Source: Zeaxanthinibacter sp. (GTDB lineage Bacteria; Bacteroidota; Bacteroidia; Flavobacteriales; Flavobacteriaceae). From it: a DNA stretch of 64,000 bases. The translations under genes were made by a program, and so were the position numbers. Location of the stretch: assembly GCA_041743975.1 (NCBI GenBank), contig JBGTLT010000162.1, forward strand, positions 12,743 to 76,742, written 5' to 3'. Below the pieces are notes generated by a model that had not been told where the DNA came from, did not search any database, and saw only the letters and a list, made by a program, of their open reading frames with translations. Positions 1,995 to 27,057 of this stretch are shown here, one piece after another. How positions within the stretch are numbered: the first letter of the stretch is position 1; each line of letters opens with the position of its first letter.

Positions 1995-2008
1995 TGTAGT
2001 GAAGCTTA

Positions 2009-3307: not shown

Positions 3308-3309
3308 GC

Positions 3310-3762: not shown

Positions 3763-3768
3763 TTGTTC

Positions 3769-4746: not shown

Positions 4747-4861
4747 CGGCTTCCCTTTTGAAGGTTATTGATTATGGTGGGACTATACCCGGTAATTGGA
4801 AATAAAGAATAATAAACTGGTTGCTTCAAAGAGTTTAAATTAATTGATGATCTGCTCCTGA

Positions 4862-7398: not shown

Positions 7399-7662
7399 GC
7401 TTTTGCAGTCCTTGGGCGAATCACATGAAATTAGCAAAAAATTGGCAATCGCCTAGGGAAAATGTTGCTTATACCGGATGGGTCGGAAGTGCCTGCGGGG
7501 AGCTGCCTTCATAGTGCCCCTTTAAAAAAATTGGCCCGGGGCTTTTCTCCACGGCCCTTATGCTGTATTTAGATGTTTTGTACTTTTTTTTCAGGAGGTA
7601 ACGAGGTTTTGTTTTTTGTATATTACCCAGCTCATTGCCCCAGCGGGCAACAATTATAGGGC

Positions 7663-10416
7663 ATGAAAAATAGTGGTTACTTATTTCTCCTCCTCCTCCT
7701 GCCTATCGGGCTTTGGGGCCAGGTCCTCCTGCCTCCTATCCAGAACTACAAGATCTTTGAATACAAAGCAGCCAGCAAGAACTGGAGCCTGGCCTGTGAT
7801 GAGGAAGGGGAATTGTATGTAGCAAACAATGAAGGTTTGTTACATTATAACGGGGAGGAATGGACATTGTATAAATTGCCACACAATACCACTATTCGCT
7901 CGGTGGCAAGCATCGAAGGCCGGATCTATACCGGATCCTATGAAGAATTTGGTTATTGGATGAAAAATGCTGTCGGGAACCTGGAGTATACTTCCCTGAC
8001 CCACCTGATACGGGACCATGTTTTTACCAGTGAGGAGTTCTGGCAGATTCTGCCTTATAAAGATGCCATTTTATTCAGGTCCTTCTCGGGAATCTATGAA
8101 TACAAAGACAATGCAATAACAGTCATTGATCCTCCTATGGTTGTTAGTTATATGGAGGTATTCCGGGACAAAGTATTGGTAGCGGCAGGTCATGAAAGAT
8201 TGTACTGGCTGTCTGGGGTAGAATTGGTGCCCTACGGCAACCATGAGGTCCTGGATGAAAAGATCGTAATAGACATGGACATCATCCCGGAGGGCCTGAT
8301 GATCGGCACTAAGCTCAATGGGTGCTATATATTGAGCAACGGGCAGCTGAATCCCTTCAACACGGGCATCAATACTGAATTAAAGCGGTTCCAATTAAAC
8401 CAGATATTGCGATTGAGCAATGGGAAAATTGCTTTTGGAACCATTAAAAACGGGGTTTATCTGTACGACCCTGAAAGAGACACTTATCAGGTATTCAATC
8501 GGGAATCCGGGTTGCAGAACAATACCATATTGTCCATGTTACAGGTCCGGGACCAGTTATGGCTGGGGCTGGACAACGGTATAGACAGGGTGCAGCTCAA
8601 TCATCCGCTCACCTATTTTACGGATTATTCCGGAGTGGTGGGCACGGTATATGACCTGGCTTTTTATAAGGGCATCCTATATGTCGGCAGCAATACCGGG
8701 ATCTATTATTTCAGGGAAAACAAACTCCATTTTGTTGAAGGATCCCAGGGCCACGTCTGGGACCTGGAAGTGATAGACGGTGACCTTTTTTGCGGGCACA
8801 ATACCGGAACTTTCAGGATTGAAGGGGATAAGCTGGAACTTATTTCCACTATTGCGGGCGGCTACCAGATAGTGAGCATACCGGAAGGAGGAGCATCCTT
8901 TTTGCAGGGAACCTATACGGGGATTGCGAAATATGACAGGGGCAAAGACGGGCAATGGCAGGCCAGGCCCGTAGCCGGATTCCCTTTCCCGGTAAAGTAC
9001 CTGTGTTTCGAAGATCCGGAAACCTTGTGGGCAGCTCATCCTTACAAGGGTTTTTATAGGATTAAGCTCAATATGAAAAAGGATTCCGTTGTAATCAGGG
9101 AGGACTTAAACACCCAGGCGCCGCCCAATATTTATAATATCAAACTGTATAATATAAAAAACCAGATCGTGCTGCAAAGTGCCGGCGAATGGTACATATA
9201 CGACCCAATTTTAGGCACTATTGGGGCTTTTAAAGAATTTCAGGCATACACAAACAAGGACCTCTTGTATAATGATGGTGCTTACTACTGGTTTGTAAAT
9301 AATGAAAACACCAAGGAAGTAATTCAGACAGACCTGAAGTCAGATCATTTGGTTTTGTCCGACAAGCAGTTTCAGGAGCGGCTGGCACCGGAATCCGGGA
9401 GGATCATCAAACAAAATGATTCTACCTACTACTTTACCCTGATCGATGGCTTCGCGAAGCTTGATCTTTCCAAATTGAGGAAGCAACAGGAGAACTTGGA
9501 ATTGTATAAACCCCAACTCAGTGGTTTCCGGGATGAGGATGTGGCCTATACGCTTCTGGATACGGCCTTTCTGATTCCGTATAAAAGTGCACAGGACCTG
9601 CAATTCAAAATATCCTCGGCCAAACAGATTATGCCCCGGTATTATTACGAGTTACGGGGTGCAATGGAAAAATCTGCCTATAGCAACCGGGGTACCATCC
9701 AGTTTCAAAACCTTCCATATGGAGACTATGACCTCAAAATCTCAACGGTAGGTACGGAGAACCAAAAATCGGAACCGCTGAAACTTTCTTTTCAAATTTT
9801 GGCACCCTGGTACCTGTCTGCCTGGAGTATTGCAGGCTATGTGCTGCTTTTATTGGCGCTCGTGTTTTACCTCAGATGGTTTAACCGCCGGAAACTACAA
9901 AAAAAGCATGATAACCTCATCGCGCAGCTGCATCGGGAACAGGAAGAGCAACTGGCCCGTCTTGAAAAGGAAAAACTGGCCAAAGAAATCAGGCTCAAAC
10001 AAAAGGAATTGGCTAGCAGCACCATGAATGTCGCCAGGAAAAATGAAATGATCCTGGAATTGAAGAATTTGCTGTTGATGAACAAGGATAAGTTCCACAA
10101 CCAGCAACGGTATCGTTTGTTTATGAAAAAATTGAACAGTTCAATGGAGGATACAGAAGACTGGAAACGTTTTGAAATGAATTTCAAGGAATTGCACGAG
10201 GATTTTTTTGGTAACCTGCTGAAAAGATACCCTAACCTAACACCCAAGGACCTCAAACTATGCGCCTATCTTAAGATGAACCTTTCAACCAAAGAAATCG
10301 CACCATTGATGGGAATCACCACCCGGGGGGTTGAAATCCACAGATACCGTCTTCGTAAGAAATTACAACTGGAAGCTACACAAAATATCTCCAATTTCCT
10401 GATTACGCTCCGATAA
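7663..10416 (+). CDS. transmembrane one-component regulator: periplasmic two-component-regulator-propeller repeats plus Y_Y_Y domain, one TM helix, coiled coil, C-terminal LuxR/GerE HTH
   Basis: Signal peptide followed by a beta-propeller-like repeat region. YYY motif (PRYYYELRG...NLPYGDYDLKI). TM helix WSIAGYVLLLLALVFYLRWF. Charged coiled coil (HREQEEQLARLEKEKLAKE). LuxR HTH (LTPKDLKLCAYLKMNLSTKEIAPLMGITTRGVEIHRYRLRKKL). No histidine-kinase or receiver motifs seen. Confidence 0.85.
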   Translation: MKNSGYLFLLLLLPIGLWGQVLLPPIQNYKIFEYKAASKNWSLACDEEGELYVANNEGLLHYNGEEWTLYKLPHNTTIRSVASIEGRIYTGSYEEFGYWMKNAVGNLEYTSLTHLIRDHVFTSEEFWQILPYKDAILFRSFSGIYEYKDNAITVIDPPMVVSYMEVFRDKVLVAAGHERLYWLSGVELVPYGNHEVLDEKIVIDMDIIPEGLMIGTKLNGCYILSNGQLNPFNTGINTELKRFQLNQILRLSNGKIAFGTIKNGVYLYDPERDTYQVFNRESGLQNNTILSMLQVRDQLWLGLDNGIDRVQLNHPLTYFTDYSGVVGTVYDLAFYKGILYVGSNTGIYYFRENKLHFVEGSQGHVWDLEVIDGDLFCGHNTGTFRIEGDKLELISTIAGGYQIVSIPEGGASFLQGTYTGIAKYDRGKDGQWQARPVAGFPFPVKYLCFEDPETLWAAHPYKGFYRIKLNMKKDSVVIREDLNTQAPPNIYNIKLYNIKNQIVLQSAGEWYIYDPILGTIGAFKEFQAYTNKDLLYNDGAYYWFVNNENTKEVIQTDLKSDHLVLSDKQFQERLAPESGRIIKQNDSTYYFTLIDGFAKLDLSKLRKQQENLELYKPQLSGFRDEDVAYTLLDTAFLIPYKSAQDLQFKISSAKQIMPRYYYELRGAMEKSAYSNRGTIQFQNLPYGDYDLKISTVGTENQKSEPLKLSFQILAPWYLSAWSIAGYVLLLLALVFYLRWFNRRKLQKKHDNLIAQLHREQEEQLARLEKEKLAKEIRLKQKELASSTMNVARKNEMILELKNLLLMNKDKFHNQQRYRLFMKKLNSSMEDTEDWKRFEMNFKELHEDFFGNLLKRYPNLTPKDLKLCAYLKMNLSTKEIAPLMGITTRGVEIHRYRLRKKLQLEATQNISNFLITLR

Positions 10417-10649
10417 ATATTCTTTTTAGCTCCGATTTCCGATCTTTTGCCGCATTACGGACTACATCAGTACTACATCATTATGTTAAATTATGATAAG
10501 GGTTTGATGTTTTAACTTATGCAAAAGCCGAGATAGTGGCGGGTTCCGGGACTTTATGTATTGATGTAATAATTATGTATAAGGAATACGCTGTAATAGG
10601 CTATTAATTTGATAACTTGTTAAAATCGTAACTCAATCCTTGAACTATT

Positions 10650-13600
10650 ATGAAAATTCGCTACACTTTGTTATTAATATGTTTTTTATTACTTCAATTT
10701 TCCGGGCTTGCTCAACAGGAGATCTCTGTTGCGGGAACAATAACAGATAGCGCCGGGGAACCGTTGCCGGGCGCGAGTATTGTGCTGAAAGGAACCGTAA
10801 CCGGAACACAATCCGATTTTGATGGTAACTATACCCTGGCCGATATTCCTTCTGATGGTACCTTAACTATAAGTTACGTTGGATATACCACGGAGGAAGT
10901 AGCAATTAACGGGCAGACAGCAATCGATGTTGTGCTGTCTGAAGATGCAGAAGCCCTGGATGAAGTGGTTGTGGTTGGATATGGAACCGCTAAAAAAAGG
11001 GATCTCGCCGGTTCAATTGTTAAGGTTGAGGGGGATGTAGTTGCAGACAAACCTAATGCAAACCCTGTGGCTTCTTTACAAGGAAAGGTCGCTGGTTTAT
11101 CTGTAGTTAACTCGGGACAGCCAGGACAAGAACCGGATATTCGTATAAGGGGAACCGTTAGTAGAAATCAAACCAAACCCTTATATGTGGTTGATGGAAT
11201 TTTTAGCGAGGACATCAGTTATATCAATCCAAACGACATAGAGTCTATCGAGTTGCTAAAAGACCCCTCATCTTTGGCCATATTTGGGGTAAGGGGAGCA
11301 AATGGGGTCATACTTGTTACGACCAAGCAAGCAAAAGAGGGAATACTAAATATTAATTTTTCAGCCTCCACTGGCGTTAAATATATTGCTGGAAAACCTG
11401 ACCTGGCCAATGCTGATTTATTTAAAACCTTATATGATGAGCGATTGGTTAATGATGGTTTAGCACCCTATGCTTCTTATAATTTATTCAATGGTGATAC
11501 CGATTGGATTGACCAAATTGCAAATAATGGAGCAATCGTTCAAAATGCCAATTTAAGTATACAAAGTGGTAATGAAACAAATAAAATAAGTATTGGTCTG
11601 GGATATTTAAAAGAAGAAGGAATTATACGAAATGAGGAATTGCAAAGAATTACCATTAATATCAATGATGAAGTCAAAATTTCCGATAATTTAAAAGTTG
11701 GTATTGGTATAAATGGGGTAAAATCAGATTTACCGGGGCCACCCCCCAACAGCCCATATAATTTTGGTGCTGCACTGATAGCGACGCCAATAGTGAGTCC
11801 TTTTAATGCAGATAATGTTTATAATCAATTACCCATCGCAATTGGTGGAGCGCAAGTAGGGAATCCTTTACTGGCGGTAAACGAACGTTTACCGACGACT
11901 ATAGATGACACCTACCGATTTGTTGGCAATGTTTTTGCCGAGTTAAGATTTTTAAAAGACTTTACCTTCAGAACAGCCTATTCGGGTAATTATGGAATTC
12001 AAAAAGGGAGAGGTTATTCTGCCCTTACCCCTGTATATGTTGCAGAAAGCGATGAAATTGCCAATTTTTCAGGACAAATATTAACAAGTGTTTCACAATA
12101 CAATAATACCAAACAGGATTTTCAACAGGATTACCTGCTAACGTATACTAAAGATTTGGGAGATCATGGTATTACAGCGTTATTAGGCTTTACCACCTTT
12201 CAGGAATATCTGGAAAATATCAATGGTTCGGTAAGACAATTGGCTGATGGCGAACCTATTCCTAATGATCCAAGATGGTGGTATTTAAATGTGTTCCCGT
12301 TTGGCGATCAGGATACAAGAATTTCAAATTCAACGCAATGGGACAGGGCCACTTCATCCTCTTTATTCCGGTTATTATATAATTATCAGGGGAAATATAT
12401 CTTAAACGGTTCGTTTAGAAGGGATTCTTCTTCAGAATTACCTGAAGCGACGAGAGACCAAAATTTTTGGTCATTAGGTGCGGCCTGGGAATTAAGCAGA
12501 GAAAAATTTATGGAGAATAGTTTCATTGATTATTTAAAACTCAAGGGTTCTTATGGGGAATTGGGGAATCAATATAATGCTGTAAATTATCCTTACCTGC
12601 CCAATTATCAGTTAGGGGCATCTGCAATATTAGGCAGTCCACAAGGCGTGATTCCTGCTTATGTTTTGGCATATCGAAATTCTAATGATTTAAGATGGGA
12701 AACCATTACCTCTTATGAAGCAGGTCTTGAGTTAACTACTTTTGAAAACAGATTGAAATTTGAAGCTGCTTATTATAATAAATTAACAAAAGATTTATTG
12801 GTATTTGTTACAAGAGGCAGTGAACGATTTTATACCAATGCCGGGGAAATCGAAAATAAGGGTTTTGAATTTTCTACCACCTGGAATGACGCTGTGGGCT
12901 CGGATTTCCAATATTCAATAAGCGGAAATTTAGCAACTGTAGAAAATACTGTAAACTCTGTAGTAGAACCTGGTTTTGAGATATTTGCCGGACCAACACG
13001 TACAAGCGAAGGTTTTCCAATTGGTTCGTTTTTTGGTTATGAAGTCGAAGGGCTTTATCAATCGAATTTAGATATTCAAGCCTCTCCCCCTAGTACAATA
13101 GGTGAGTATGCACCTGGAGATTTTAAATATAGAGACGTGAATGGTGATGGTGTAATAACTGAAGATGACAGAACGGTAATAGGAAACCCAACTCCCGATT
13201 TTACGTATGGTGCAAGTGTAAATCTTGCTTATAAAAACCTCTCATTAGACATTGATGTACAAGGGGTTTATGGAAATGAGATATGGCGAAATTGGGGTAA
13301 TGGAAGTACTTTTGCCCAATTTAACTACAGAAGTGCAAGAGCTGACAGATGGATAGGTGGTGGAACCTCAAACTGGGAACCAAGATTAACTGAAGCTTCC
13401 GGGTATAACAAACAAAATTCTACTTATAATATAGAGGACGGTAGTTACGTAAGACTTCGGAATGTCCAACTTGCTTACAATTTTAAACCATTGACTATAA
13501 ATGGAAAGGATATAAAAAATATGAAATTATATCTCAATGCACAAAATTTATATACCTGGAAACATAATTCTGGTTTTACACCAGAGGCAGGAGGGACCCC

Positions 13601-13676
13601 AATTGAGTTTAGTATTGATAATGGCGGATATCCTTTACCTGTAATAACCAGTTTAGGTTTTAATGTAACATTTTAG
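10650..13676 (+). CDS. susC: SusC/RagA family TonB-linked outer membrane protein
   Basis: 1008 aa. Signal peptide, then a carboxypeptidase-regulatory-like N-terminal domain (ISVAGTITDSAGEPLPGASIVLKGT), a plug region (VVVGYGTAKKRDLAGS) and a terminal aromatic residue (NVTF). A SusD gene follows. Confidence 0.95.
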   Translation: MKIRYTLLLICFLLLQFSGLAQQEISVAGTITDSAGEPLPGASIVLKGTVTGTQSDFDGNYTLADIPSDGTLTISYVGYTTEEVAINGQTAIDVVLSEDAEALDEVVVVGYGTAKKRDLAGSIVKVEGDVVADKPNANPVASLQGKVAGLSVVNSGQPGQEPDIRIRGTVSRNQTKPLYVVDGIFSEDISYINPNDIESIELLKDPSSLAIFGVRGANGVILVTTKQAKEGILNINFSASTGVKYIAGKPDLANADLFKTLYDERLVNDGLAPYASYNLFNGDTDWIDQIANNGAIVQNANLSIQSGNETNKISIGLGYLKEEGIIRNEELQRITININDEVKISDNLKVGIGINGVKSDLPGPPPNSPYNFGAALIATPIVSPFNADNVYNQLPIAIGGAQVGNPLLAVNERLPTTIDDTYRFVGNVFAELRFLKDFTFRTAYSGNYGIQKGRGYSALTPVYVAESDEIANFSGQILTSVSQYNNTKQDFQQDYLLTYTKDLGDHGITALLGFTTFQEYLENINGSVRQLADGEPIPNDPRWWYLNVFPFGDQDTRISNSTQWDRATSSSLFRLLYNYQGKYILNGSFRRDSSSELPEATRDQNFWSLGAAWELSREKFMENSFIDYLKLKGSYGELGNQYNAVNYPYLPNYQLGASAILGSPQGVIPAYVLAYRNSNDLRWETITSYEAGLELTTFENRLKFEAAYYNKLTKDLLVFVTRGSERFYTNAGEIENKGFEFSTTWNDAVGSDFQYSISGNLATVENTVNSVVEPGFEIFAGPTRTSEGFPIGSFFGYEVEGLYQSNLDIQASPPSTIGEYAPGDFKYRDVNGDGVITEDDRTVIGNPTPDFTYGASVNLAYKNLSLDIDVQGVYGNEIWRNWGNGSTFAQFNYRSARADRWIGGGTSNWEPRLTEASGYNKQNSTYNIEDGSYVRLRNVQLAYNFKPLTINGKDIKNMKLYLNAQNLYTWKHNSGFTPEAGGTPIEFSIDNGGYPLPVITSLGFNVTF

Positions 13677-13699
13677 TAAAATTTATAATTTTTAATACT

Positions 13700-15175
13700 A
13701 TGAAAAAAGAAATAGTCTTCATTAAGAATATAATAGGAGCACTGCTTATGTTATCATTTATTATTTCGTGTACTAACGATTTATTGGATACAAAGCCATT
13801 AGGAGTTGCTACTGTTGGAGACCTTACAACCGGTGGTTTTGAAGCAGATGCGTTTGGATTGTACGGACAACTAAGAGATTCGGGCGTTTCAAATTGGACT
13901 AGATTCTGGTTTCAAAGCATTCGTTCCGATGATGCCGATAAAGGGAGTTCGGCTGGCGATCAAGCGCAGGGAGGAGCTGATTTTAATGAATTTAATTATT
14001 CCATTGATAGTGGCTTTAATAATGATAATTGGAATGACCATTACAAAGTGATCAATGCCTGTAATGATTTAATTGATGCCATCGAAGTTTCCGGGTTAAC
14101 GGATAGTGGGACTATGGTAAATATGGCCGAAGCCAGAATGGTAAGGGCATTTCTTTATTTTGATTTAAGAAGGGATTACGGGGAGGTTCCAATAGTTGAT
14201 GAAAAAATAACAGAAGTAACCGATGGGAATAATCCAAAATCTACCGAAGCAGAGGTTGATGCTTTTATTGAAGCTGATCTGGAGTTTGCAAGCGCAAATT
14301 TGCCTTTGACCTGGCCCTCTAACCATGTTGGAAGGGCTACCAAAGGGTTTGCGGATGGGTTACTCGCCAAACTGTATTTATATCAGGAAAACTATGCTGC
14401 TTCTTTGGCAAAAAGTCAGGAAGTTATCAATTCCGGGGTGTATGCATTAGAACCTTCCTATAAAACATTGTTCAACATTGAGGGTAATAATTCGATTGAA
14501 TCTATATTTGAAATACAACAATTGGTTACAGAATCTGGTCAGGAGTTTGGTAATACTTATTATCAATCACAAGGAGTTAGAGGTACGGGCCAATGGGACT
14601 TAGGTTGGGGGTTTAATGTGCCTACCCAAAATTTAGTGGATGCTTATGAACCGGATGACCCAAGGATGGATGACACAATCTTAATTTCGGGTGAAGATGA
14701 TGGCGGTTATGGTAGTGGGACCTTGCCAGGAACTCCTCCTCTGGATCAATTATATTGGAACAAAAAAGCATATACCGAAGCTGCTGAAAGAGTGAGATTT
14801 AGCCTGAGGTTTAATCTGTGGGAGAATATAAAAATTCTTCGATATGCAGATGTTCTGCTAATGGCAGCGGAAGCAGCGGTTCAAACAGGAAATGTGGCTC
14901 TTGCCACGGATTATTTAAACCAGGTAAGGGCACGGGCAAGAGGTGGGGCAAACGTGCTTCCGGATGTAGCACTTGCAACATTAGAGGCTGTCAAGCACGA
15001 AAGAAGAATAGAATTGGCAATGGAAGGGGAGCGTTTTTACGATTTGGTCCGCTGGGGTGAAGCACCTGCCATGTTGGGGGGCTTAGGCTATGAAGCTAGA
15101 AATGAGTGGTATCCAATCCCACAAACGGCAATCGATCAATCGAACGGGGTATTGGTACAAAATCCAAATTATTAA
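13700..15175 (+). CDS. susD: SusD/RagB family nutrient-binding outer membrane lipoprotein
   Basis: 491 aa with a lipoprotein signal (LSFIISC). The C-terminal ERRIELAMEGERFYDLVRWG motif is typical of SusD. Lies 23 nt after susC. Confidence 0.9.
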   Translation: MKKEIVFIKNIIGALLMLSFIISCTNDLLDTKPLGVATVGDLTTGGFEADAFGLYGQLRDSGVSNWTRFWFQSIRSDDADKGSSAGDQAQGGADFNEFNYSIDSGFNNDNWNDHYKVINACNDLIDAIEVSGLTDSGTMVNMAEARMVRAFLYFDLRRDYGEVPIVDEKITEVTDGNNPKSTEAEVDAFIEADLEFASANLPLTWPSNHVGRATKGFADGLLAKLYLYQENYAASLAKSQEVINSGVYALEPSYKTLFNIEGNNSIESIFEIQQLVTESGQEFGNTYYQSQGVRGTGQWDLGWGFNVPTQNLVDAYEPDDPRMDDTILISGEDDGGYGSGTLPGTPPLDQLYWNKKAYTEAAERVRFSLRFNLWENIKILRYADVLLMAAEAAVQTGNVALATDYLNQVRARARGGANVLPDVALATLEAVKHERRIELAMEGERFYDLVRWGEAPAMLGGLGYEARNEWYPIPQTAIDQSNGVLVQNPNY

Positions 15176-15199
15176 TAATTGTTCAAAAAAAAGTTAGCT

Positions 15200-17632
15200 A
15201 TGAAAAATCGGCTTCATAAATTTAAAATAATGGCTTATGTGGTTTTGACTGCGTTTGCCATTACGGGTTGTCAAAATTTAGACAAACCCGGATTCGGGGA
15301 ATATGAATTGGATCCTTCTATAGTAAACATTCTTTCTCCTGAAGAAGGGTCCGCTATTAAGGTTTTTGAAGAGGTCACATCTGTAGATATAGAAATAGAA
15401 GTTAATGATGATAATGTTGTTGATGAAATATCAATAGTTTTGGACGGCACTGAGATTGCAACATTAAATAATTTCAGTAATCCACGTCATGTATCAGAAA
15501 CTTACACATATGACGGTTTAGTAAATGGAAGCCATAAATTAACGGTAACATCTACCGATATTAATGGTAAATCTACCTCTGCTGAAGTTAATTTCAGCAA
15601 AGACCCGCCATACACTCCTACATATGATGGTGAAATTTTATACATGCCTTTTGATGGTGACTATAGGGATTTGGTTAGGGGTAATTTGGCAGATCAGGTC
15701 GGGTCACCTGGCTTTGCAGGTTCTGGTCTTGCAGGAACAAATGCATATAAGGGTGCCGCTGACTCCTATTTAACAAAACCAACGGAGGGGCTTTTAAATT
15801 CGGAATTTAGCGCGACTTTTTGGATAAACACCATTGCGACCCCTGACAGAGCCGGGATATTAACAATCAGCCCGGAAGATGCTGTAAATCCCGGTAATCC
15901 AAATAACAGATCAAGTGGCTTTAGATTGTTTAGGGAAGCCGTGGATGGAAATCAGGTACTTAAGTTAAATATTGGTTCTGGCGGTGATAATTGGTTCGAT
16001 GGTGGAGCGGCTGCTGCCTTGCCATTAGGTGAATGGGCACATGTCACAATAAGTATCAGTGCATCAGAGGCTACAGTGTTTATTAATGGACAGATTGTCA
16101 GCCAGGGTGGCTTCCCCGGACTCGATTGGACGGGTTGTGATTTGCTTTCTATTGGCTCTGGAGCCCCTAGATTTGTGGAATGGGGACATTTAGCAGAGGA
16201 AAGTCCGATTGATGAGCTCCGCATCTTCAATAAAGCTTTGACACAAGCTGATATTCAGGATATGATCAATACGGCCAATCCGTACATACCTCAATTTCCT
16301 GGCGAAACATTCTATATGCCCTTTGATAATGGTTTTGTCAACCTGGTTGGCAATATAGCTGCTACCCCGGTTGGGTCGCCTCAAATAACAGTTGACGCCT
16401 ATGAAGGATCAGGTGCCTATATGGGAGCTACTGATTCCTATATAACATATCCGTCAGCCGGATTAACCACCCCTGAGTTCAGTGCCAGTATGTGGTTTAA
16501 TTTAAACAATGTACCGGATCGTGCTGCTCTATTGGCCATTAGTCCGGAAGATACAGCTAATCCCGGATATCCTGATATTCAAAATAACAGATCGTCTGGC
16601 ATTAGGTTGTTTCGGGAAGATGTTGGTGGAGAGCAGGTACTTAAACTGAATATCGGTACGGGCGGTGACAATTGGTTTGACGGTGGTGCAGCTGCTGCAA
16701 TGCCATTAGGTGAATGGGCACATCTTGCAATAAGTATTGGGGCAACGGAGGCAACTGTATATATAAATGGAGTGGTGGTAAGCACTGGGCCTTTTCCAGG
16801 CCTTGATTGGACAGGTTGTGATGTTATTTCCATTATGTCCGGTGCACCAAGGTTTACAGAATGGGGTCATCTATCTGATCTTAGTAGTCTGGACGAATTG
16901 CGATTTTTTAATAAGGCATTATCTGCAGAAGAAGTTGGTGCAATATTTGGTGGTGTGGTTACACCTCCATTCTTTGGAGCAACCTTATACATGCCCTTTG
17001 ATGGTGACAATGTCAACAAAGCTCAAAATGTTGCAGCCACAGTTGTAGGAACCACGGGGTTCTCCGGTGAAGGTAAGGTAGGATCAGATTCTTTTGCAGG
17101 TGCTGCAGACTCTTATTTAACGATTCCATCTGATGGGTTAACCACCCCGGAATTTAGTGCTGCCATGTGGTACAAATTAAACAATGTTCCGGACCGCGGA
17201 GGTATTTTGGCAATCAGTCCTGAAGATGTTGCCAATGCGGGCTACCCTGATATTCAAAATGACAGGTCATCGGGCATTAGGTTGTTCAGGGAAGATGTTG
17301 GGGGAGAGCAGGTGCTTAAACTGAATATCGGTACGGGTACCGACAATTGGTTTGATGGTGGTGCTGCTGCTGCGATGCCAGTAGGTGAATGGGCACATCT
17401 CGCAATAAGTATCGGGGCAACTGAGGCAACGGTATATATAAATGGGGAAGTGGTAAGCACTGGACCCTTTACTGGGCTTGATTGGACAGGCTGTGATGTT
17501 ATTTCCATTATGTCCGGTGCTCCAAGGTTTACAGAATGGGGTCATTTATCCGATCTTAGTTTTCTTGATGAATTGTACTTTTTTGATAAAGCACTGACAC
17601 AGGCCGAGATCCAAACCATTATGTCAGAATAG
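15200..17632 (+). CDS. surface lipoprotein with an N-terminal Ig-like domain and three tandem LamG/concanavalin-like domains (candidate surface glycan-binding protein)
   Basis: ATG at 15200 gives MKNRLHKFKIMAYVVLTAFAITGC, a lipobox. The track start at 15179 is a TTG. Three units of about 224 aa each begin YMPFDG/N and contain PDR..L.ISPED...NNRSSG.RLFRE...LKLNIG.G.DNWFDGGAAA.P.GEWAH. It occupies the position after susD that is usual for SGBPs. Confidence 0.8.
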   Translation: MKNRLHKFKIMAYVVLTAFAITGCQNLDKPGFGEYELDPSIVNILSPEEGSAIKVFEEVTSVDIEIEVNDDNVVDEISIVLDGTEIATLNNFSNPRHVSETYTYDGLVNGSHKLTVTSTDINGKSTSAEVNFSKDPPYTPTYDGEILYMPFDGDYRDLVRGNLADQVGSPGFAGSGLAGTNAYKGAADSYLTKPTEGLLNSEFSATFWINTIATPDRAGILTISPEDAVNPGNPNNRSSGFRLFREAVDGNQVLKLNIGSGGDNWFDGGAAAALPLGEWAHVTISISASEATVFINGQIVSQGGFPGLDWTGCDLLSIGSGAPRFVEWGHLAEESPIDELRIFNKALTQADIQDMINTANPYIPQFPGETFYMPFDNGFVNLVGNIAATPVGSPQITVDAYEGSGAYMGATDSYITYPSAGLTTPEFSASMWFNLNNVPDRAALLAISPEDTANPGYPDIQNNRSSGIRLFREDVGGEQVLKLNIGTGGDNWFDGGAAAAMPLGEWAHLAISIGATEATVYINGVVVSTGPFPGLDWTGCDVISIMSGAPRFTEWGHLSDLSSLDELRFFNKALSAEEVGAIFGGVVTPPFFGATLYMPFDGDNVNKAQNVAATVVGTTGFSGEGKVGSDSFAGAADSYLTIPSDGLTTPEFSAAMWYKLNNVPDRGGILAISPEDVANAGYPDIQNDRSSGIRLFREDVGGEQVLKLNIGTGTDNWFDGGAAAAMPVGEWAHLAISIGATEATVYINGEVVSTGPFTGLDWTGCDVISIMSGAPRFTEWGHLSDLSFLDELYFFDKALTQAEIQTIMSE
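15641..17632 (+). repeat. three tandem in-frame coding repeats (periods 672 and 675 nt) encoding the LamG-like domains
   Basis: Unit starts (codons for Y-M-P-F-D) are at 15641, 16313 and 16988. Units 2 and 3 share 155 of 172 nt by hand alignment (16599..16770 versus 17274..17445). Confidence 0.85.
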
Positions 17633-17768
17633 AAAAATGGGGAGACTCCAGAAGTGAACGGAGATTTTTCCGGGGCCTGAATGCCATTTATTTGTTAGGT
17701 TTAATTAGTTCTTTTAGCTGCATTCCATGACAGGGATGCAGCTAAATATTCTCAATTGTTTTTATAGT

Positions 17769-19142
17769 ATGTTGCAATTCACAAATAAGACAAAATTAGC
17801 AATCTTACCTTGCCTGTTGCTTTTTCTCAGCTGCAATACAGGCAAAAAGGATATTCAAAATAGTGATAACTCCCATTTTCAGGAGGCTTTAACTGATGAC
17901 GAAATTTTGGATTCAGTACAGCAACAAACCTTCAATTATTTCTGGGAGGGAGCAGAGCCCGTTTCCGGACTGGCACGGGAACGGATCCACATGGATAATA
18001 TCTACCCCAGCAATGACAAGGACATCATAACAACCGGTGGTTCCGGTTTTGGCCTGATGGCAATCCTTGCCGGGATAGAGCGTGGCTTCATCACGCGGGA
18101 ACAAGCCGTGGAGCGCTACGAACGCATCATCGGCTACCTTGAGAAAGCAGACCGCTTTCACGGAGCGTGGCCGCACTGGCTGAATGCTGATGGGGAAACG
18201 GTCCCGTTTAGTGCTAAGGACGATGGGGGCGACCTTGTGGAAACGGCCTTTCTCGTACAGGGGCTGCTAACGGTCAGGGAATACTTCTTGAATGGTTCTG
18301 AAAGGGAAAATCAACTTGCGGATAAAATCCAGTTGCTATGGGAAGGGGTTGAGTGGGACTGGTATACCAAAGGCGGGGAAAATGTGCTGTACTGGCATTG
18401 GTCACCCCGGTATGGCTGGGAAATGAATTTCCCTGTCGGGGGTTATAATGAGGCGCTCATCATGTATGTACTTGCGGCTGCATCCCCAACCCACCCCATC
18501 AGGAAGGAAGTGTATGAAAAAGGCTGGGCCCGGGACGGCGCGATTACCAGGGATACCACGGTCTATGGGCTTGAAACGGAACTGGACCACTATGAACATA
18601 ATGATCATGCTGTGGGCCCTTTGTTCTGGGCCCATTATTCCTACCTTGGGCTGGATCCCACAGGCCTGAAAGATCAATATGCCGACTATTGGAAACTCAA
18701 CTACCATCACGCCAGGATACAGTATGAACATGCCGTTCGGAACCCCGGGGATTTTGAGGGCTATGGGGAAGACTTATGGGGGCTCACCTCCAGCTATTCC
18801 ATGAAGGGGTATGCAGGACACCACCCGGACGAGGACCTGGGGGTGATCTCCCCCACGGCTGCTTTATCCTCAATGCCCTATACGCCAAAGGAGAGCATGC
18901 AATTTTTGCGGTATATGTATGAAAAACAGGATTCCCTCGTCGGCAAGTATGGACCCTATGATGCTTTTAGCCTTGAGAATAAATGGTATGTGCCGAGATA
19001 CCTTGCCATTGACCAGGGCCCCATTCCCGTAATGGTGGAAAATTACAGGACAGGATTGCTCTGGAAACTCTTTATGAAAAATAAGGACGTACAGAACGGA
19101 TTGAAAAAATTAAATTTTACCAGCCCATACCTGAAAAGCTGA
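17769..19142 (+). CDS. glucoamylase-family lipoprotein (PF10091-like, the family classified as GH144 endo-beta-1,2-glucanases)
   Basis: ATG at 17769 gives MLQFTNKTKLAILPCLLLFLSC, a lipobox. Motifs recalled from this family: TTGGSGFGLMA, FHGAWPHWLN, GGDLVETAFLVQGLL, GPLFWAHYSYLGLDP, YLAIDQGPIPVMVENYRTGLLW. Family assignment is from memory, not a search. Confidence 0.7.
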   Translation: MLQFTNKTKLAILPCLLLFLSCNTGKKDIQNSDNSHFQEALTDDEILDSVQQQTFNYFWEGAEPVSGLARERIHMDNIYPSNDKDIITTGGSGFGLMAILAGIERGFITREQAVERYERIIGYLEKADRFHGAWPHWLNADGETVPFSAKDDGGDLVETAFLVQGLLTVREYFLNGSERENQLADKIQLLWEGVEWDWYTKGGENVLYWHWSPRYGWEMNFPVGGYNEALIMYVLAAASPTHPIRKEVYEKGWARDGAITRDTTVYGLETELDHYEHNDHAVGPLFWAHYSYLGLDPTGLKDQYADYWKLNYHHARIQYEHAVRNPGDFEGYGEDLWGLTSSYSMKGYAGHHPDEDLGVISPTAALSSMPYTPKESMQFLRYMYEKQDSLVGKYGPYDAFSLENKWYVPRYLAIDQGPIPVMVENYRTGLLWKLFMKNKDVQNGLKKLNFTSPYLKS

Positions 19143-20515
19143 TGGCAAAAACCTTTTTCGCAATCATATGCCTGTTCCTGCTTCACTCATGCGGAAAGGA
19201 TGACCATATCTATACCCCCGTAGACATTCCGGATGATTCGCCAAAGCCACCCGCAGAGACCCCGGCAATAACCGATGCCGAACTGCTGGACCTGACACAG
19301 CGCGAAACGTTCCGGTATTTCTGGGATTATGCAGAAGTCAACTCGGGGTGTGCCAGGGAACGGTACCACCCTGGCGACCCAACCCGGGATGAGCAGGTGG
19401 TTACCACTGGGGGTACCGGTTTTGGATTGATGGCCTTGCTGGTAGGGATGGAAAGGGGCTATATTTCCCGGGAAGACGGAGTGGATCGCCTTGATAAAAT
19501 CCTTTCTTTTTTGGAAAATGCGGATCGTTTTCATGGTGCGTGGCCCCACTGGCTGAACGGGAGCAACGGGAAGGTAATCCCTTTCAGCAGCCTCGATAAC
19601 GGAGGCGACCTTGTAGAGACTGCTTTCCTGGTCCAGGGCCTGATCTGTATAAAGGAATATTTGCAACAGGGTACACCCGCCGAAACCCTGCTGGCCTCCA
19701 GGGCTGATGACCTTTGGAAAGGGGTTGATTGGGCCTGGTATACGCAGGGGCAGGAAGTCTTGTATTGGCACTGGAGCCCCGATCATGGTTTTGATCTCAA
19801 CCTCCAACTCAAAGGCTACAACGAGGTGTTGATTACCTATGTATTGGCTGCAGCATCACCTGATTTCAGTATCACAAAGGAGGTTTATGACACAGGATGG
19901 GCCTCTAATGGCGGTATGCTGTCGACCAATAGCCCGTATAATGTTCCCCTTTTAGTCCGGCACGCCGGATCTACGGAATATGGCGGTCCCTTGTTCTGGG
20001 CACATTATTCTTACCTGGGCCTTGATCCCCGGAACCTTGCAGACGAATTTGTTAATTATTGGGACGTGAACGTCAACCAGGCCCGGATCAACCTGGTATA
20101 TTGTATTGATAATCCTGAAGGTTATAAGGATTACGGGGAAAATTGCTGGGGCCTTACCGCCAGCTACACCCGGAATGAAGATGGGAGCCTGGGGTATGCC
20201 GCCCACCGGCCTGGAAATGATACCGGCGTCATATCACCGACTGCAGCTATAAGCTCCATCCCCTATACCCCCGACGCATCACTGAAAGCACTCCATTTTT
20301 TTTACGGACATAAAGACAAACTATTGGGTCCTGCGGGGTTTTATGATGCCTTTAGCCCGCAACATAATTATTGGGTAGCAGACGGCTACCTCGCCATTGA
20401 CCAGGGACCGGAGCTCATCATGATTGAAAATTACCGGACGGGATTGCTATGGGAACTGTTTATGGGCAACAAGGACGTTCAGTCCGGCCTTCTGAAATTG
20501 GGATTTACATATTAA
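19142..20515 (+). CDS. second glucoamylase-family (GH144-type) lipoprotein, tandem paralogue
   Basis: Lipobox LFLLHSC. Carries the same motif set as the upstream gene (TTGGTGFGLMA, FHGAWPHWLN, GGDLVETAFLVQGLI, GPLFWAHYSYLGLDP, YLAIDQGPELIMIENYRTGLLW). Its ATG overlaps the upstream TGA by 1 nt. Confidence 0.7.
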   Translation: MAKTFFAIICLFLLHSCGKDDHIYTPVDIPDDSPKPPAETPAITDAELLDLTQRETFRYFWDYAEVNSGCARERYHPGDPTRDEQVVTTGGTGFGLMALLVGMERGYISREDGVDRLDKILSFLENADRFHGAWPHWLNGSNGKVIPFSSLDNGGDLVETAFLVQGLICIKEYLQQGTPAETLLASRADDLWKGVDWAWYTQGQEVLYWHWSPDHGFDLNLQLKGYNEVLITYVLAAASPDFSITKEVYDTGWASNGGMLSTNSPYNVPLLVRHAGSTEYGGPLFWAHYSYLGLDPRNLADEFVNYWDVNVNQARINLVYCIDNPEGYKDYGENCWGLTASYTRNEDGSLGYAAHRPGNDTGVISPTAAISSIPYTPDASLKALHFFYGHKDKLLGPAGFYDAFSPQHNYWVADGYLAIDQGPELIMIENYRTGLLWELFMGNKDVQSGLLKLGFTY

Positions 20516-20525
20516 GTTGTATTTT

Positions 20526-20617
20526 CATCAAACGAATTCCCCGGGGCTTTTGCCCCGGGACACCTATCCTCTGGAGAAGTCGAAACCACTAAGGCGGTTT
20601 CGGGGGAGGAGAAATTC
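20526..20617 (+). repeat. copy A of a structured intergenic repeat of about 90 nt
   Basis: Matches the reverse complement of 50942..51030. Contains hairpins ccggggc-tttt-gccccgg (20541..20558) and cgaaacc...ggtttcg (20581..20602). Confidence 0.7.
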
Positions 20618-20666
20618 ATTATTCCCGGAAAATGCATCGGAATAAACCTGGATTAATCGTATTAAA

Positions 20667-22436
20667 TTGCAGAGAATTACCGCCTTTTTAGCACTGCTTG
20701 GTTTGTTTTTGCAGCCCTCGTTTTCTGTGGGACAACAAGCGCAAAAGACGTTTTGCAACCCCATTAACATTGATTACGGTTATACCCCAATACCTAATTT
20801 CTCAACCCAGGGCAGGCACCGTGCCACAGCGGATCCGGTAATTGTAACCTTCAAAGGGAATTATTTCCTGTTTTCAACCAACCAATGGGGATATTGGTGG
20901 AGCAGCGATATGCTGGCCTGGAATTTTATCCCCCGGAAATTCCTGCTCGAACAGCACAAGGTCTATGACGAACTATGTGCACCTGCAGCGTTTGTGATGA
21001 AGGATGAATTGTATGTCATCGGTTCAACCCATGGGCCTTCCTTCCCCATCTGGAAAAGCAGTAATCCTACGGTTGATGATTGGACCATCGCTGTGGATTC
21101 CCTCAAGGTAGGGGCCTGGGATCCCGCTTTTCTGTATGATGATGAAAAGGAAAAACTATACCTCTACTGGGGCTCCAGCAATGAGTTTCCAATACTGGGA
21201 AGTGAGATAAACATCCAGACAATGCAGTCCGAAGGGTTTACCAAACCCATAATATCGCTGCACCCTGAAGACCATGGCTGGGAACGATTCGGGGAATACA
21301 ATGACAACACCTTCCTTCAGCCTTTTATGGAGGGTGCCTGGGTAACACTTTACAATGGTAAATACTATATGCAATACGGGGCGCCGGCCACTGAATTCAG
21401 CGGGTATGCCGACGGCGTATACGTAAGTAACCAACCCCTGGAGGGCTTTGTGTATCAATCCCATAACCCATTTTCATATAAACCAGGAGGTTTTGCCAGG
21501 GGAGCCGGCCATGGGGCCACTTACCAGGACAATTTTGGCAATTGGTGGCACGTTTCAACGATAGTCCTGGGCGTTAAAAATAGTTTTGAGCGAAGGATAG
21601 GGATCTGGCCGGCCGGTTTTGATGCCGAAGGGACCCTCTATTGCAATACGGCATATGGAGACTATCCTACCTACCTGCCTACCGGGGATGCTGACCATCG
21701 CAAAGGGCTCTTTACGGGCTGGATGTTATTGAATTACAATAAACCTGTACAGGTTTCCTCCACCCTGGGCGGGTTTCAACCTAATTTTGCCGTGGATGAG
21801 GACCTGAAAACATACTGGTCTGCGAAAACCGGTGTGAAAGGTGAATGGTTTCAGACAGACCTGGGCGAAATCAGCACCATCCATGCCATACAGGTAAATT
21901 ATGCGGACCAGGATGCAGAATTCCTGGGCAAGAGCCATGGGGCATACCACCAGTATAAAATATTCGGATCAGATGATGAAAGGTCCTGGGATCTCCTGAT
22001 TGATAAGAGCCGAAACAAGACCGATGTCCCACATGATTATATTGTACTTGAGAAAACCGTACAGGCGCGGTACCTCAGGATGGAAAATATAAAAATGCCA
22101 ACCGGAAAATTTGCAATAAGCGGGTTTCGGGTATTTGGAAAGGCCGATGGGGAATCACCGCCTTCCGTACAGGATTTTATTGCCCTCAGGGCCAGCCCTG
22201 AGAAATATGGGGAACGGCGCAGTGCCTGGCTTAAATGGGAGGTGAACGATAGCGCGGATGGCTATGTCATCTATTTCGGGAAATCCCCTGGCAAGCTGTA
22301 TGGTAGCATTATGGTATATGGAAAGAACGATTATTTTTTCACAGGAATGGACAGGACTGACCCCTATTATTTTCAAATAGAAGCATTTAACGCCAATGGC
22401 ATTTCCGAAAGGACACCCGAGATCAGGGTGGAATAA
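20667..22436 (+). CDS. GH43-like five-bladed beta-propeller glycoside hydrolase with F5/8 type C (discoidin/CBM32-like) and C-terminal FN3-like domains
   Basis: Signal peptide. RHRATADPVIVTFKGNYFLFST and FMEGAWV are GH43-type catalytic-region motifs. The central FAVDEDLKTYWSAK...ARYLRMENI region is discoidin-like. The start is a TTG with no in-frame ATG near the signal peptide. Confidence 0.72.
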   Translation: MQRITAFLALLGLFLQPSFSVGQQAQKTFCNPINIDYGYTPIPNFSTQGRHRATADPVIVTFKGNYFLFSTNQWGYWWSSDMLAWNFIPRKFLLEQHKVYDELCAPAAFVMKDELYVIGSTHGPSFPIWKSSNPTVDDWTIAVDSLKVGAWDPAFLYDDEKEKLYLYWGSSNEFPILGSEINIQTMQSEGFTKPIISLHPEDHGWERFGEYNDNTFLQPFMEGAWVTLYNGKYYMQYGAPATEFSGYADGVYVSNQPLEGFVYQSHNPFSYKPGGFARGAGHGATYQDNFGNWWHVSTIVLGVKNSFERRIGIWPAGFDAEGTLYCNTAYGDYPTYLPTGDADHRKGLFTGWMLLNYNKPVQVSSTLGGFQPNFAVDEDLKTYWSAKTGVKGEWFQTDLGEISTIHAIQVNYADQDAEFLGKSHGAYHQYKIFGSDDERSWDLLIDKSRNKTDVPHDYIVLEKTVQARYLRMENIKMPTGKFAISGFRVFGKADGESPPSVQDFIALRASPEKYGERRSAWLKWEVNDSADGYVIYFGKSPGKLYGSIMVYGKNDYFFTGMDRTDPYYFQIEAFNANGISERTPEIRVE

Positions 22437-22447
22437 ATGGACTTAAA

Positions 22448-23659: not shown

Positions 23660-23749
23660 TGGAGGCTCAGCTGGGATGCTGCCCTAAAGTTTGAAGTTGA
23701 TGATTCCGATAGTAGCCCGTTTCCCTTGTCAGATTAAACAGCATTTACC

Positions 23750-25375: not shown

Positions 25376-25380
25376 ATCTT

Positions 25381-26987: not shown

Positions 26988-27007
26988 GGGTACTTCAGGA
27001 TTGAAAA

Positions 27008-27015
27008 CAAATGTA
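27008..27015 (-). promoter_or_regulatory. candidate Bacteroidota -7 promoter box (TACATTTG) for the TauE-like gene
   Basis: The minus strand reads TACATTTG, matching the TAnnTTTG consensus. It ends 20 nt upstream of the ATG at 26987. Confidence 0.4.
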
Positions 27016-27057
27016 TCTTAAAAAATAATATCTTTATGGCTCAACCAAAACCAAACT

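Follow-up and report, generated by a model that had tools for sequence, protein, structure and literature searches.

The region at positions 7663-26217 of the analysed window (the whole stretch of DNA, 64,000 nucleotides long) is read here, with a probability of roughly 0.75, as one PUL of the marine "GH144 + sulfatase" type, the target of which would have a beta-1,2-glucan backbone that is most likely anionic at C6 (sulfate, phosphate). Loci of this kind are already known: this one is an intact copy of a gene cluster common in marine Flavobacteriaceae, and its sole oddity is that the beta-glucosidase and esterase genes of its relatives have been lost.

All seven ORFs of the gene order regulator, SusC, SusD, LamG lipoprotein, two GH144 genes, and GH43-like gene were found on the + strand as the sequence-only reading had given them. 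The end of the locus, which it had placed at 22436, was moved: three further same-strand genes lie downstream, preceded by gaps of 11 bp (PHP hydrolase), 90 bp (sulfatase), and 5 bp (EEP phosphatase), and the unit reaches 26217. The susC and susD genes are adjacent, the CAZyme genes are co-oriented with them, the locus has its own regulator, and its gaps measure 3-151 bp, with all genes on the + strand. The presence of each gene was counted in 66 related loci with full flanks, and the order regulator-SusC-SusD-LamG-GH144a-GH144b recurs in the related loci (L002-L081), which come from dozens of genera of marine Flavobacteriaceae. In earlier work, a sulfatase was described as an addition to marine GH144 PULs, and a sulfated marine polysaccharide was inferred from it with carbohydrates identical to those of terrestrial beta-1,2-glucan (Lapebie et al. 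2019, PMC6499787); all Maribacter and Zobellia have a GH3, two GH144, susCD, and a sulfatase (PMC8072126). The earlier interpretation as a beta-1,2-glucan PUL is one that the literature already applies to such loci; no biochemical test of any marine GH144 PUL was found in the literature search. In a search of sequencing runs, the sequence occurred only in DNA metagenomes (beach sand, hot spring, and soil). Scans for sigma-70 promoters, the consensus of which is ill-suited to Bacteroidota, and for terminators gave no enrichment over shuffled sequences.

The two GH144 genes encode lipoproteins: GH144a (17727..19142, +) is an orthologue-type copy of CpSGL (Cpin_6279 of Chitinophaga pinensis, PDB 5GZH/5GZK), the founding GH144 endo-beta-1,2-glucanase, and GH144b (19142..20515, +) represents a second GH144 lineage. 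Their placement in GH144 held in every available sequence test, with matches to 5GZK/5GZH at E-values of 3e-179 (GH144a) and 2e-156 (GH144b) and PF10091 scores of 270 bits (2e-80) and 261 bits, respectively, against a cut-off of 27. The equivalents of D135, D139, E142, E211, F268, Y330, and D400 are kept in both paralogues, the first six of them within the motifs D.GGDLVET, GYNE, PLFW, and GYA.H. E211 is the general acid of GH144, E142 is the candidate base, and F268 and Y330 are SGL-clan residues; the characterised GH144 enzymes act solely on beta-1,2-glucans in all cases (PMC12102758). The paralogues are 52.7% identical, and in a neighbor-joining (NJ) tree CpSGL falls inside the GH144a clade, while GH144b lies in a separate clade of 74 sequences. 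The pair is predicted from its sequences to be endo-beta-1,2-glucanases. The ORF of GH144a opens at 17727, and translation probably begins with the ATG at 17766 (MLQF...LFLSC), one codon ahead of the previously proposed 17769, while the proposed end at 19142 was right. The overlap of the GH144a stop with the GH144b start was also seen, as TGATG at 19140-19144. GH144b has the lipobox LLHSC and reads C-G-K-D-D from the lipid-anchor cysteine onward.

Neither a GH3 nor a GH1 gene was detected anywhere in the 64-kb window by tblastn and Pfam, in agreement with the sequence-only reading, and no remnants of a GH3 or an esterase were found in the window. Among the related loci, a GH3 stands beside the GH144 genes in 61 of 66 and an esterase is present in 50 of 66; GH3 is also absent from loci L020, L068, and L082. 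The GH3 of the relatives matches 5XXL at 8e-280 and Lin1840 at 7e-173, and we take the clade of 5XXL/5XXM and Lin1840 to consist of beta-1,2-oligoglucan beta-glucosidases that degrade sophoro-oligosaccharides. At the spot where the relatives have their esterase and GH3 genes, the 151-bp spacer between GH144b and the GH43-like gene holds a G+C-rich hairpin with a 9-bp stem (20539..20560). The absence of GH3 is, to judge from sequence comparison, a derived and lineage-specific loss, and the same comparison shows that the window lineage lost the esterase (S9-type carboxylesterase) as well; in roughly 90% of related loci, these two genes come after the GH144 genes. With no GH3 in the window, the last step to glucose would have to rely on a gene outside it, elsewhere in the genome. 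A decaying locus, considered in view of the absent GH3, was rejected because every ORF is intact and the catalytic residues have been kept.

The SusC-type TonB-dependent transporter (10650..13676, +) matches TIGR04056 at 808 bits and has Plug and CarboxypepD_reg domains. It is followed by a SusD-family lipoprotein (13700..15175, +; SusD_RagB 3e-31, SusD-like_3 1e-18, lipobox ...IISC) and by the LamG lipoprotein (15179..17632, +), which combines a Big_7 domain (Ig-like) with three modules of the LamG/ConA-like type. The LamG lipoprotein has a probable start at ATG 15200 and the lipobox ...AITGC, and Pfam finds Laminin_G_3 in it at 2e-59 in three stretches. By alignment, the modules are approximately 224 amino acids each and 61-76% identical among themselves; Tandem Repeats Finder reported no repeat in the gene, the modules being too long and diverged for that program. 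In the PDB, the lipoprotein weakly resembles the arabinanase AbnA in the C-terminal region of that enzyme. The protein occurs in 47 of 66 related loci and also in Saprospiraceae and Draconibacterium loci. A role as surface glycan-binding protein, as proposed in the earlier reading, is plausible because it is a lipoprotein encoded directly 3' of SusD, has three ConA-like modules, and recurs in those 47 loci. The SusC-SusD-LamG module of the window has a foreign base composition, with a GC3 of 0.28 in susC versus 0.52-0.56 in the enzyme genes.

Upstream of susC lies a BguR-type membrane-spanning one-component regulator (7663..10416, +), assigned by Pfam, hydrophobic segments, and architecture, and present in 62 of 66 related loci. 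It is composed of a signal peptide, a beta-propeller/Y_Y_Y periplasmic sensor, one TM helix, a coiled linker, and a GerE/LuxR helix-turn-helix. The hydrophobic segments span residues 5-26 and 716-740, and GerE is found at 858-904, with weak matches to Y_Y_Y and Reg_prop; HisKA, HATPase_c, and response regulator families were not among the Pfam matches at E<=0.01. This is the BguR-type arrangement of signal peptide, propeller/Y_Y_Y sensor, single TM, and GerE with no phosphorelay domain. BguR itself, a one-component regulator that spans the membrane, belongs to the laminarin PUL of Formosa agariphila; its function has been demonstrated for laminarin only, a binding motif has been published for it, and a distinct BguR clade was described for GH144 PULs (bioRxiv 10.64898/2026.01.10.698779).

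A candidate operator lies in the spacer between the regulator gene and susC. Its site 1 (10462..10480, +), some 188 nt 5' of the susC ORF, exactly matches a tandem direct repeat of 11-bp period (CTACATCA-GTA-CTACATCA) and is the single match in the window against 0.04 expected. Of 68 regulator-susC spacers, 56 have the repeat at this distance, and across 1.73 Mb of loci it has 72 matches, 60 of them upstream of susC. Site 2 (10562..10580, -), located 100 bp further downstream, is a copy of site 1 in inverted and degenerate form (TGATGTAATAATTATGTAT). Among 61 loci, 43 have such a copy at 60-140 bp (mostly 95-104) 3' of site 1, compared with a mean of 0.48 in shuffled spacers. Paired CTACRTCA-N3-CTACRTCA sites upstream of susC thus form a conserved, two-part candidate operator.

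The first of the three added genes encodes a secreted metallohydrolase of the PHP type (CehA/McbA-like; 22448..23659, +), a lineage-specific accessory that matches NF038032 at 68 bits, below the cut-off of 80, and has no match in Pfam or the PDB. Its gene occurs in one of 66 loci (L049), and a 103-aa remnant is present in L082. The second (23750..25375, +) is a formylglycine-type S1 sulfatase, a lipoprotein with Sulfatase and SGSH_C domains and a candidate glucose-6-O-sulfatase, in which Cys82 stands in the motif CGPSR. It matches PDB 9S03 at 7e-232, 5G2V (BT4656) at 9e-157, and 7P24 at 5e-152. The entry 9S03 is the orthologous sulfatase from the GH144 PUL of Mariniflexile fucanivorans; the literature search returned no paper describing it and no relevant one on a Mariniflexile sulfatase. 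5G2V and 7P24 presumably belong to subfamily S1_11, and the protein is S1_11-like in its C/S-x-P-x-R motif and its closest similarity to these two. The nearest characterised relatives are GlcNAc-6-O-sulfatases, and the substrate here is presumably 6-sulfo-glucose rather than GlcNAc-6S. Among the 66 related loci, 32 contain the gene, which Draconibacterium has as well. The third (25381..26217, +) encodes a secreted EEP-family phosphatase (PF03372), a candidate glycan 6-phosphatase, which matches the mannosyl-6-phosphatase 4C1R at 2e-58 over residues 22-260 and 3MPR at 2e-58; at least 15 of the 66 loci contain it, as do L082, L084, and L088. Its context suggests a phosphorylated glucan as substrate.

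These genes could instead lie outside the GH144 system and form, with the downstream TauE, SSF, and HGSNAT genes and with or without the PHP gene, a separate module for sulfo-amino-sugar salvage, which we consider improbable. In the window, L020, and L082, the sulfatase, EEP, TauE, SSF, and HGSNAT genes stand side by side (in L068, those from EEP onward), the closest characterised sulfatases act on GlcNAc-6-sulfate, and the pairing of SGSH_C with HGSNAT recalls the lysosomal heparan sulfate pathway. However, the sulfatase follows GH144/GH3 in those 32 loci from many genera and in the Draconibacterium GH144 locus, while TauE/SSF/HGSNAT are found in only two of 66; TauE is on the opposite strand, and published surveys place the sulfatase with the GH144 PUL (PMC8072126; PMC6499787). 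With the sulfatase and phosphatase counted as part of the PUL, the beta-1,2-glucan target proposed earlier gains support from the GH144 pair and from the GH3 clade of the relatives, but not in its plain form; the conserved sulfatase and phosphatase genes argue for an anionic glucan. We know of no sulfated beta-1,2-glucan.

The last enzyme of the first-described part (20667..22436, +) is a distant GH43-fold (clan GH-F) protein with an SPI signal peptide, a CBM32/discoidin domain, and a C-terminal Fn3-like domain. The discoidin domain was confirmed as F5/8 type C (Pfam F5_F8_type_C) at residues 362-476. The label "GH43-like" held in part: it agrees with profile and fold matches, but the Pfam GH43 model (PF04616) gave no match for residues 1-368 even at E<=1. 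Some close homologues have a precomputed PF04616 match, and the profile search returned the GH43 structures 3KST (1e-7) and 4QQS (8e-6). The AlphaFold (AF2) model, built with both subfamilies as input, has a pLDDT of 71 and a pTM of 0.77; an earlier run with 31 close homologues (pLDDT 58) was set aside. The top Foldseek matches of the model were exclusively GH43 enzymes (best E 4e-20), with arabinofuranosidases, arabinanases, xylosidases, and beta-1,3-galactosidases as named activities, and the model indicates a five-bladed beta-propeller catalytic fold of clan GH-F. D56, D152, and E222 are invariant over 56 sequences of two subfamilies; D56-P57 and D152-P153 are, by motif position, candidate equivalents of the GH43 Asp residues, and in the alignment with 3KST, E222 (FMEGAW) is paired with the Glu of VAEGPS, which we take by its motif to be the GH43 general acid. 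The gene is present in 39 of 66 related loci, and six of six homologue contexts lie inside GH144 PULs of several Bacteroidota lineages.

The sequence-only reading had suggested for this enzyme a non-canonical exo or side-chain role in view of the absent GH3; in an exo role, it would finish the degradation of sophoro-oligosaccharides. The lack of GH3 and GH1 throughout the window, the position of the gene directly 3' of the GH144 pair, and the intact candidate GH43-type triad D56/D152/E222 speak for the exo role, and we nevertheless regard it as very doubtful. The enzyme is not a GH3 replacement because it normally coexists with GH3 in related loci, where proteins 75-91% identical to it adjoin a GH3; locus L020 lacks both genes, and the window protein, 91% identical to that of L082, shows no special divergence.

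A broader alternative is that "beta-1,2-glucan PUL" oversimplifies a substrate that is a complex marine heteroglycan, algal or bacterial, with beta-1,2-linked glucose as one element. The GH43-fold/CBM32 protein, sulfatase, and phosphatase, along with the esterases, GH2, and GH97 of the relatives, would then strip non-glucose branches and substituents. The strict tie of the GH43-fold enzyme to GH144 PULs is consistent with this, and so are its CBM32 domain and the occurrence of GH2/malectin in eight and GH97 in nine of the 66 loci. To our knowledge, no GH43 enzyme acts on glucosides or beta-glucans. Against it, the constant core is GH144 (GH144a in 52 of 66 loci) with GH3 of the presumed sophoro-oligosaccharide-degrading clade, GH43-like, GH2, and GH97 are each missing from many loci, and the characterised GH144 enzymes are all restricted to beta-1,2-glucans (PMC12102758). 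The heteroglycan is accordingly held unlikely, and the anionic beta-1,2-glucan is preferred, although the GH43-fold enzyme, CBM32, and the occasional GH2/GH97 of the relatives suggest that there may be more to the natural substrate than glucose.

For the anionic beta-1,2-glucan, the following route is proposed. Binding of the glucan at the surface and its cleavage to oligosaccharides would fall to SusD, the triple-LamG lipoprotein, and one of the two GH144 lipoproteins, and SusC would import the oligosaccharides. GH144b is the likelier surface enzyme because K-D-D stands right behind its lipid-anchor cysteine, a position in which these residues are read as a lipoprotein export motif. In the periplasm, the other GH144 would shorten the oligosaccharides, the sulfatase-like, EEP-like, and PHP enzymes would remove anionic substituents, and the GH43-fold/CBM32 enzyme would contribute a further step. 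By homology, the BguR-type regulator may sense a periplasmic oligosaccharide and activate the operon through the CTACRTCA-N3-CTACRTCA sites.

In Bacteroidota, GH144 PULs rank with the commonest types of PUL, and their sulfatase-bearing marine version implies an abundant, never isolated marine glycan (Lapebie et al. 2019, PMC6499787). The window adds nothing fundamentally new, and the comparison with its relatives sharpens the picture: it defines a conserved accessory set (S1_11-like sulfatase, BT3783-like phosphatase, esterases, and the PUL-bound GH43-fold enzyme), shows that the modules (SusCD/LamG, GH144, and accessory) have been shuffled among lineages, and puts forward a concrete sequence as candidate operator for those BguR-type regulators that form the GH144 clade. 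The accessory set and candidate operator are testable handles on the substrate, with the GH43-fold/CBM32 enzyme as the most useful target. It is conceivable, if tentative, that this protein and its approximately 40%-identical sister subfamily found a new activity for beta-1,2-glucan-type glycans and that the locus targets an undescribed sulfated and/or phosphorylated beta-1,2-glucan. If so, the enzyme might cleave off some as yet unknown branch, or it might act on decorated or cyclic forms by opening or trimming them; the glycan would be abundant in marine sediments and sands, and the window would be a minimal GH3-free version of the system, useful to define the glycan.

Several known systems resemble parts of the locus. 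The window shares with CpSGL the GH144a clade and the catalytic set and differs in holding two paralogues, GH144b lying in a sister clade without a characterised member. The GH43-fold protein resembles GH43 hydrolases such as BT_3662 (5MSX) and 3KST in fold (the Foldseek match at 4e-20), Glu alignment, and invariant Asp-Pro motifs, whereas identity is 11-19% and the window-type protein is tied to GH144 PULs. The sulfatase shares the formylglycine motif, full-length similarity, and SGSH_C with BT4656 of Bacteroides thetaiotaomicron and other S1_11 GlcNAc-6-O-sulfatases (5G2V, 7P24); it belongs to a glucan PUL, while the BT4656 type belongs to a host-glycan PUL. Similarly, the phosphatase has the EEP fold, secretion, and PUL encoding of BT3783, the mannosyl-6-phosphatase of the yeast-mannan PUL (4C1R), but its context points to a phosphorylated glucan, not mannan. 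The regulator is like BguR in domain order, the lack of phosphorelay domains, and its position directly 5' of susC. The closest system as a whole is the marine "GH144 + sulfatase" PUL (PMC6499787; Maribacter/Zobellia, PMC8072126), with the same SusCD, two GH144, sulfatase, and marine Flavobacteriaceae host, from which the window differs in lacking GH3 and the S9-type esterase, in its extra PHP hydrolase, and in the foreign base composition of SusC-SusD-LamG.

The locus runs along the + strand in the order expected from the sequence-only reading, which had proposed a candidate beta-1,2-glucan polysaccharide utilisation locus (PUL) at 7663-22436. According to the ORF list and the Pfam and NCBIfam scans, the regulator (7663-10416) is followed by SusC (10650-13676; TIGR04056, 808 bits), SusD (13700-15175), an 817-aa LamG lipoprotein with a Big_7 domain and three Laminin_G_3 modules (15179-17632), two tandem PF10091 genes with lipoprotein signal peptides, GH144a (17727/17766-19142) and GH144b (19142-20515), and a 589-aa GH43-like protein with an F5/8 type C domain (20667-22436). 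The stop codon of GH144a and the start codon of GH144b overlap in TGATG (19140-19144). The 3' boundary had been drawn too short, as three further + strand genes follow with gaps of 11, 90, and 5 bp: a PHP/CehA-like metallohydrolase (22448-23659; NF038032, 68 bits against a cut-off of 80), a sulfatase with the formylglycine motif CGPSR (23750-25375), and an EEP protein homologous to the mannosyl-6-phosphatase 4C1R (25381-26217; E 2e-58).

Both paralogues belong to GH144, and no profile placed them outside this family. GH144a and GH144b match the structures of CpSGL, the founding endo-beta-1,2-glucanase from Chitinophaga pinensis (5GZK/5GZH), over the full length, with E-values of 3e-179 and 2e-156, respectively. 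The key residues described for the family comprise E211 as general acid, E142 as probable base, D135, D139, and the conserved D400, together with the clan-defining F268 and Y330 (PMC12102758); both proteins keep all seven, the chain numbering of 5GZK/5GZH being that of published CpSGL. The two proteins are 52.7% identical to each other. In a neighbour-joining tree of 159 GH144 sequences from related loci, computed with no bootstrap support, CpSGL groups within the GH144a clade. The GH144b type has a clade of its own, made up of 74 sequences, none of which is characterised.

Related loci were surveyed with one genome per species, yielding 80 loci. The arrangement regulator-SusC-SusD-LamG-GH144a-GH144b is found again in genera that include Flagellimonas/Allomuricauda, Maribacter, Lutibacter, Winogradskyella, Mariniflexile, Kordia, Arenibacter, Cellulophaga, and Leeuwenhoekiella. 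In the 66 loci whose 10-kb flanks are complete, SusC is present in 63, the regulator in 62, GH3 in 61, GH144a in 52, an S9-type esterase in 50, the LamG protein in 47, a GH43-like protein in 39 (two subfamilies, 20 + 19), the sulfatase in 32, a BD-FAE esterase in 24, GH97 in nine, a GH2 with a malectin domain in eight, and PHP in one; EEP is found in at least 15, a lower bound because the flanks stop at 10 kb. The GH3 proteins of these loci match 5XXL/5XXM (8e-280) and Lin1840 (7e-173), which we take to be the B. thetaiotaomicron and Listeria innocua beta-glucosidases that degrade beta-1,2-oligoglucans. The GH97 and GH2-malectin additions occur in L075, L086, and other Flavobacterium-type loci, as well as in L005 and L062, a hint that the substrate in those lineages contains alpha-linked or non-glucose elements.

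This PUL type is already described in the literature, and the window holds one more member of it. Beta-1,2-glucan/GH144 PULs are counted among the abundant PULs (Lapebie et al. 2019, PMC6499787); all Maribacter and Zobellia are reported to carry GH3, two GH144, susCD, and a sulfatase (PMC8072126); and such GH144 PULs were predicted in deep-sea MAGs and Mesoflavibacter (PMC10405439). Homology, synteny, and published annotation support beta-1,2-glucan as the predicted target of the locus. The interest left in it lies in the natural substrate, the GH43-fold enzyme, and the operator.

The locus had been described as devoid of GH3 and GH1; neither was found across all 64 kb of the window, nor was an esterase remnant. 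In relatives, esterase and GH3 genes stand after GH144b; in the window, their place is taken by nothing more than a 151-bp spacer, which contains a G+C-rich hairpin (20539-20560). The nearest relatives, L082, L020 (Poritiphilus flavus), and L068, likewise have no GH3, L082 being 91% identical to the window in the GH43-like protein and 96% in the SSF protein. GH3 has therefore been lost from the locus in this lineage, and its absence is not a trait of the PUL type. The GH43-like enzyme had been given an exo or side-chain role to make up for the missing GH3. Such a substitution is not borne out: the gene adjoins GH3 in four related loci (L083, L086, L087, and L088), and the P. flavus locus has neither.

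The "GH43-like" label itself holds, though not through Pfam, in which residues 1-368 had no match even with the threshold relaxed to E<=1. The GH43 structures 3KST (1e-7) and 4QQS (8e-6) were retrieved with a profile built from 31 homologues, and an AlphaFold model from 56 sequences (pLDDT 71, pTM 0.77) had only GH43 enzymes as its top Foldseek matches, the best being BT_3662 (5MSX, E 4e-20). D56-P57, D152-P153, and E222-G223 are invariant across both GH43-like subfamilies, and E222 is aligned with the Glu of VAEGPS in 3KST, taken from its motif to be the GH43 general acid. The protein retains 74-91% identity in Flavobacteriaceae, Draconibacterium, and Saprospiraceae; its sister subfamily is approximately 40% identical and equally conserved. 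It lies inside a GH144 PUL in six of six genomic contexts looked up, one of them a Flavobacterium ichthyis locus without the sulfatase. Its SPI-type signal peptide makes action in the periplasm probable. The named activities among its Foldseek relatives are those of arabinofuranosidases, arabinanases, xylosidases, and beta-1,3-galactosidases.

The sulfatase is close to the GlcNAc-6-O-sulfatases 5G2V and 7P24, and its best PDB match is 9S03, a "putative sulfatase" (E 7e-232). 9S03 is 99.8% identical over aligned residues 10-548 to the sulfatase ORF of the Mariniflexile fucanivorans GH144 PUL (L022:17312-18928), so a structure of the orthologue of the window sulfatase exists. The catalytic cysteine of the formylglycine motif is serine in this structure (CTNSISGPSR, compared with CTNSICGPSR in the window protein). 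A literature search found no publication on 9S03. The sulfatase and the EEP enzyme are both similar to enzymes whose site of action is C6 of a hexose. Together with the esterases found in relatives, they are what would be expected as accessory enzymes if the substrate were an anionic glucan substituted at C6. Known periplasmic and cyclic beta-1,2-glucans bear phosphoglycerol, phosphoethanolamine, and succinyl groups at C6. Sulfate as the substituent was inferred for marine PULs by Lapebie et al. (PMC6499787). For the secreted PHP/CehA-like protein, no Pfam or PDB relatives were found; its gene occurs in one other locus only (L049), with a 103-aa remnant in L082 (L082:11781-12092), and it may be a lineage-specific accessory enzyme, possibly a phosphoesterase.

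Downstream of EEP, the window carries at 26232-30033 a TauE-family exporter on the - strand, a 603-aa Na+/solute symporter, and an HGSNAT-like membrane acyltransferase, genes that likewise come after EEP in L020, L068, and L082. An SGSH_C sulfatase with such a TauE/symporter/HGSNAT set is reminiscent of the lysosomal heparan-sulfate pathway. Further downstream (31772-36272) are a GCS2-family glutamate-cysteine ligase-like gene, a class-I glutamine amidotransferase, and ORFs of 409 and 398 aa without Pfam matches; the first genes of this cluster are also found in L082. Upstream, a hexuronate catabolism block on the - strand (549-6268) comprises a mannitol-dehydrogenase-family reductase, the TRAP transporter DctMQP, and glucuronate isomerase UxaC, and related GH144 loci do not share it. 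Adjoining the regulator gene is a 366-aa ORF (6337-7437, - strand) with no Pfam match; an internal hydrophobic stretch lies close to its N-terminus.

The composition of the locus is mosaic. GC3 is 0.28-0.33 in SusC, SusD, and LamG (10650-17632) and 0.52-0.56 in the regulator and enzyme genes. Compared with their counterparts in most relatives, closer ones included, SusC and SusD reach only approximately 34% and 27% identity, but 70% against those of the Flavobacterium sp. Arc3 GH144 PUL (L075), suggesting that the SusC-SusD-LamG uptake module was gained horizontally or swapped. Between the window and L082, the flank proteins are 82-96% identical, GH144a 72%, and GH144b 68%, and L082 has a 1111-aa FG-GAP/UnbV_ASPIC gene inserted between its two GH144 genes (L082:3639-9929); one lineage or the other seems to have replaced its GH144 pair. 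Evidently, GH144 PULs have traded uptake, backbone-cleaving, and accessory modules with one another. The three LamG modules (15638-17629, approximately 224 aa each) share 61-76% identity at the protein level and 68-77% at the DNA level, with modules 2 and 3 the closest pair, a pattern suggestive of internal duplication.

The regulator comprises a signal peptide (residues 5-26), a sensor part with weak Reg_prop and Y_Y_Y matches, one TM helix (716-740) and, after a charged linker, a GerE helix-turn-helix (858-904); the domains listed include neither a kinase nor a receiver. The spacers between the regulator gene and susC were searched in 68 loci, and a tandem direct repeat, CTAC(A/G)TCA-N3-CTAC(A/G)TCA, with a period of 11 bp (site 1), was found approximately 188 nt upstream of the susC ORF in 56 of them. 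Its match in the window is exact and unique (10462-10480; 0.04 expected by chance), and of the 72 matches in 1.73 Mb of locus sequence, 60 are upstream of susC. Approximately 100 bp downstream of site 1, 43 of 61 loci carry a degenerate copy in inverted orientation (site 2; 10562-10580 in the window), compared with 0.48 in shuffles. The two sites are proposed as the candidate operator of the regulator. BguR has the same architecture as the window regulator, and BguR-type regulators were tied to GH144 PULs in a 2026 preprint (bioRxiv 10.64898/2026.01.10.698779); for their GH144 clade, an operator sequence is now put forward.
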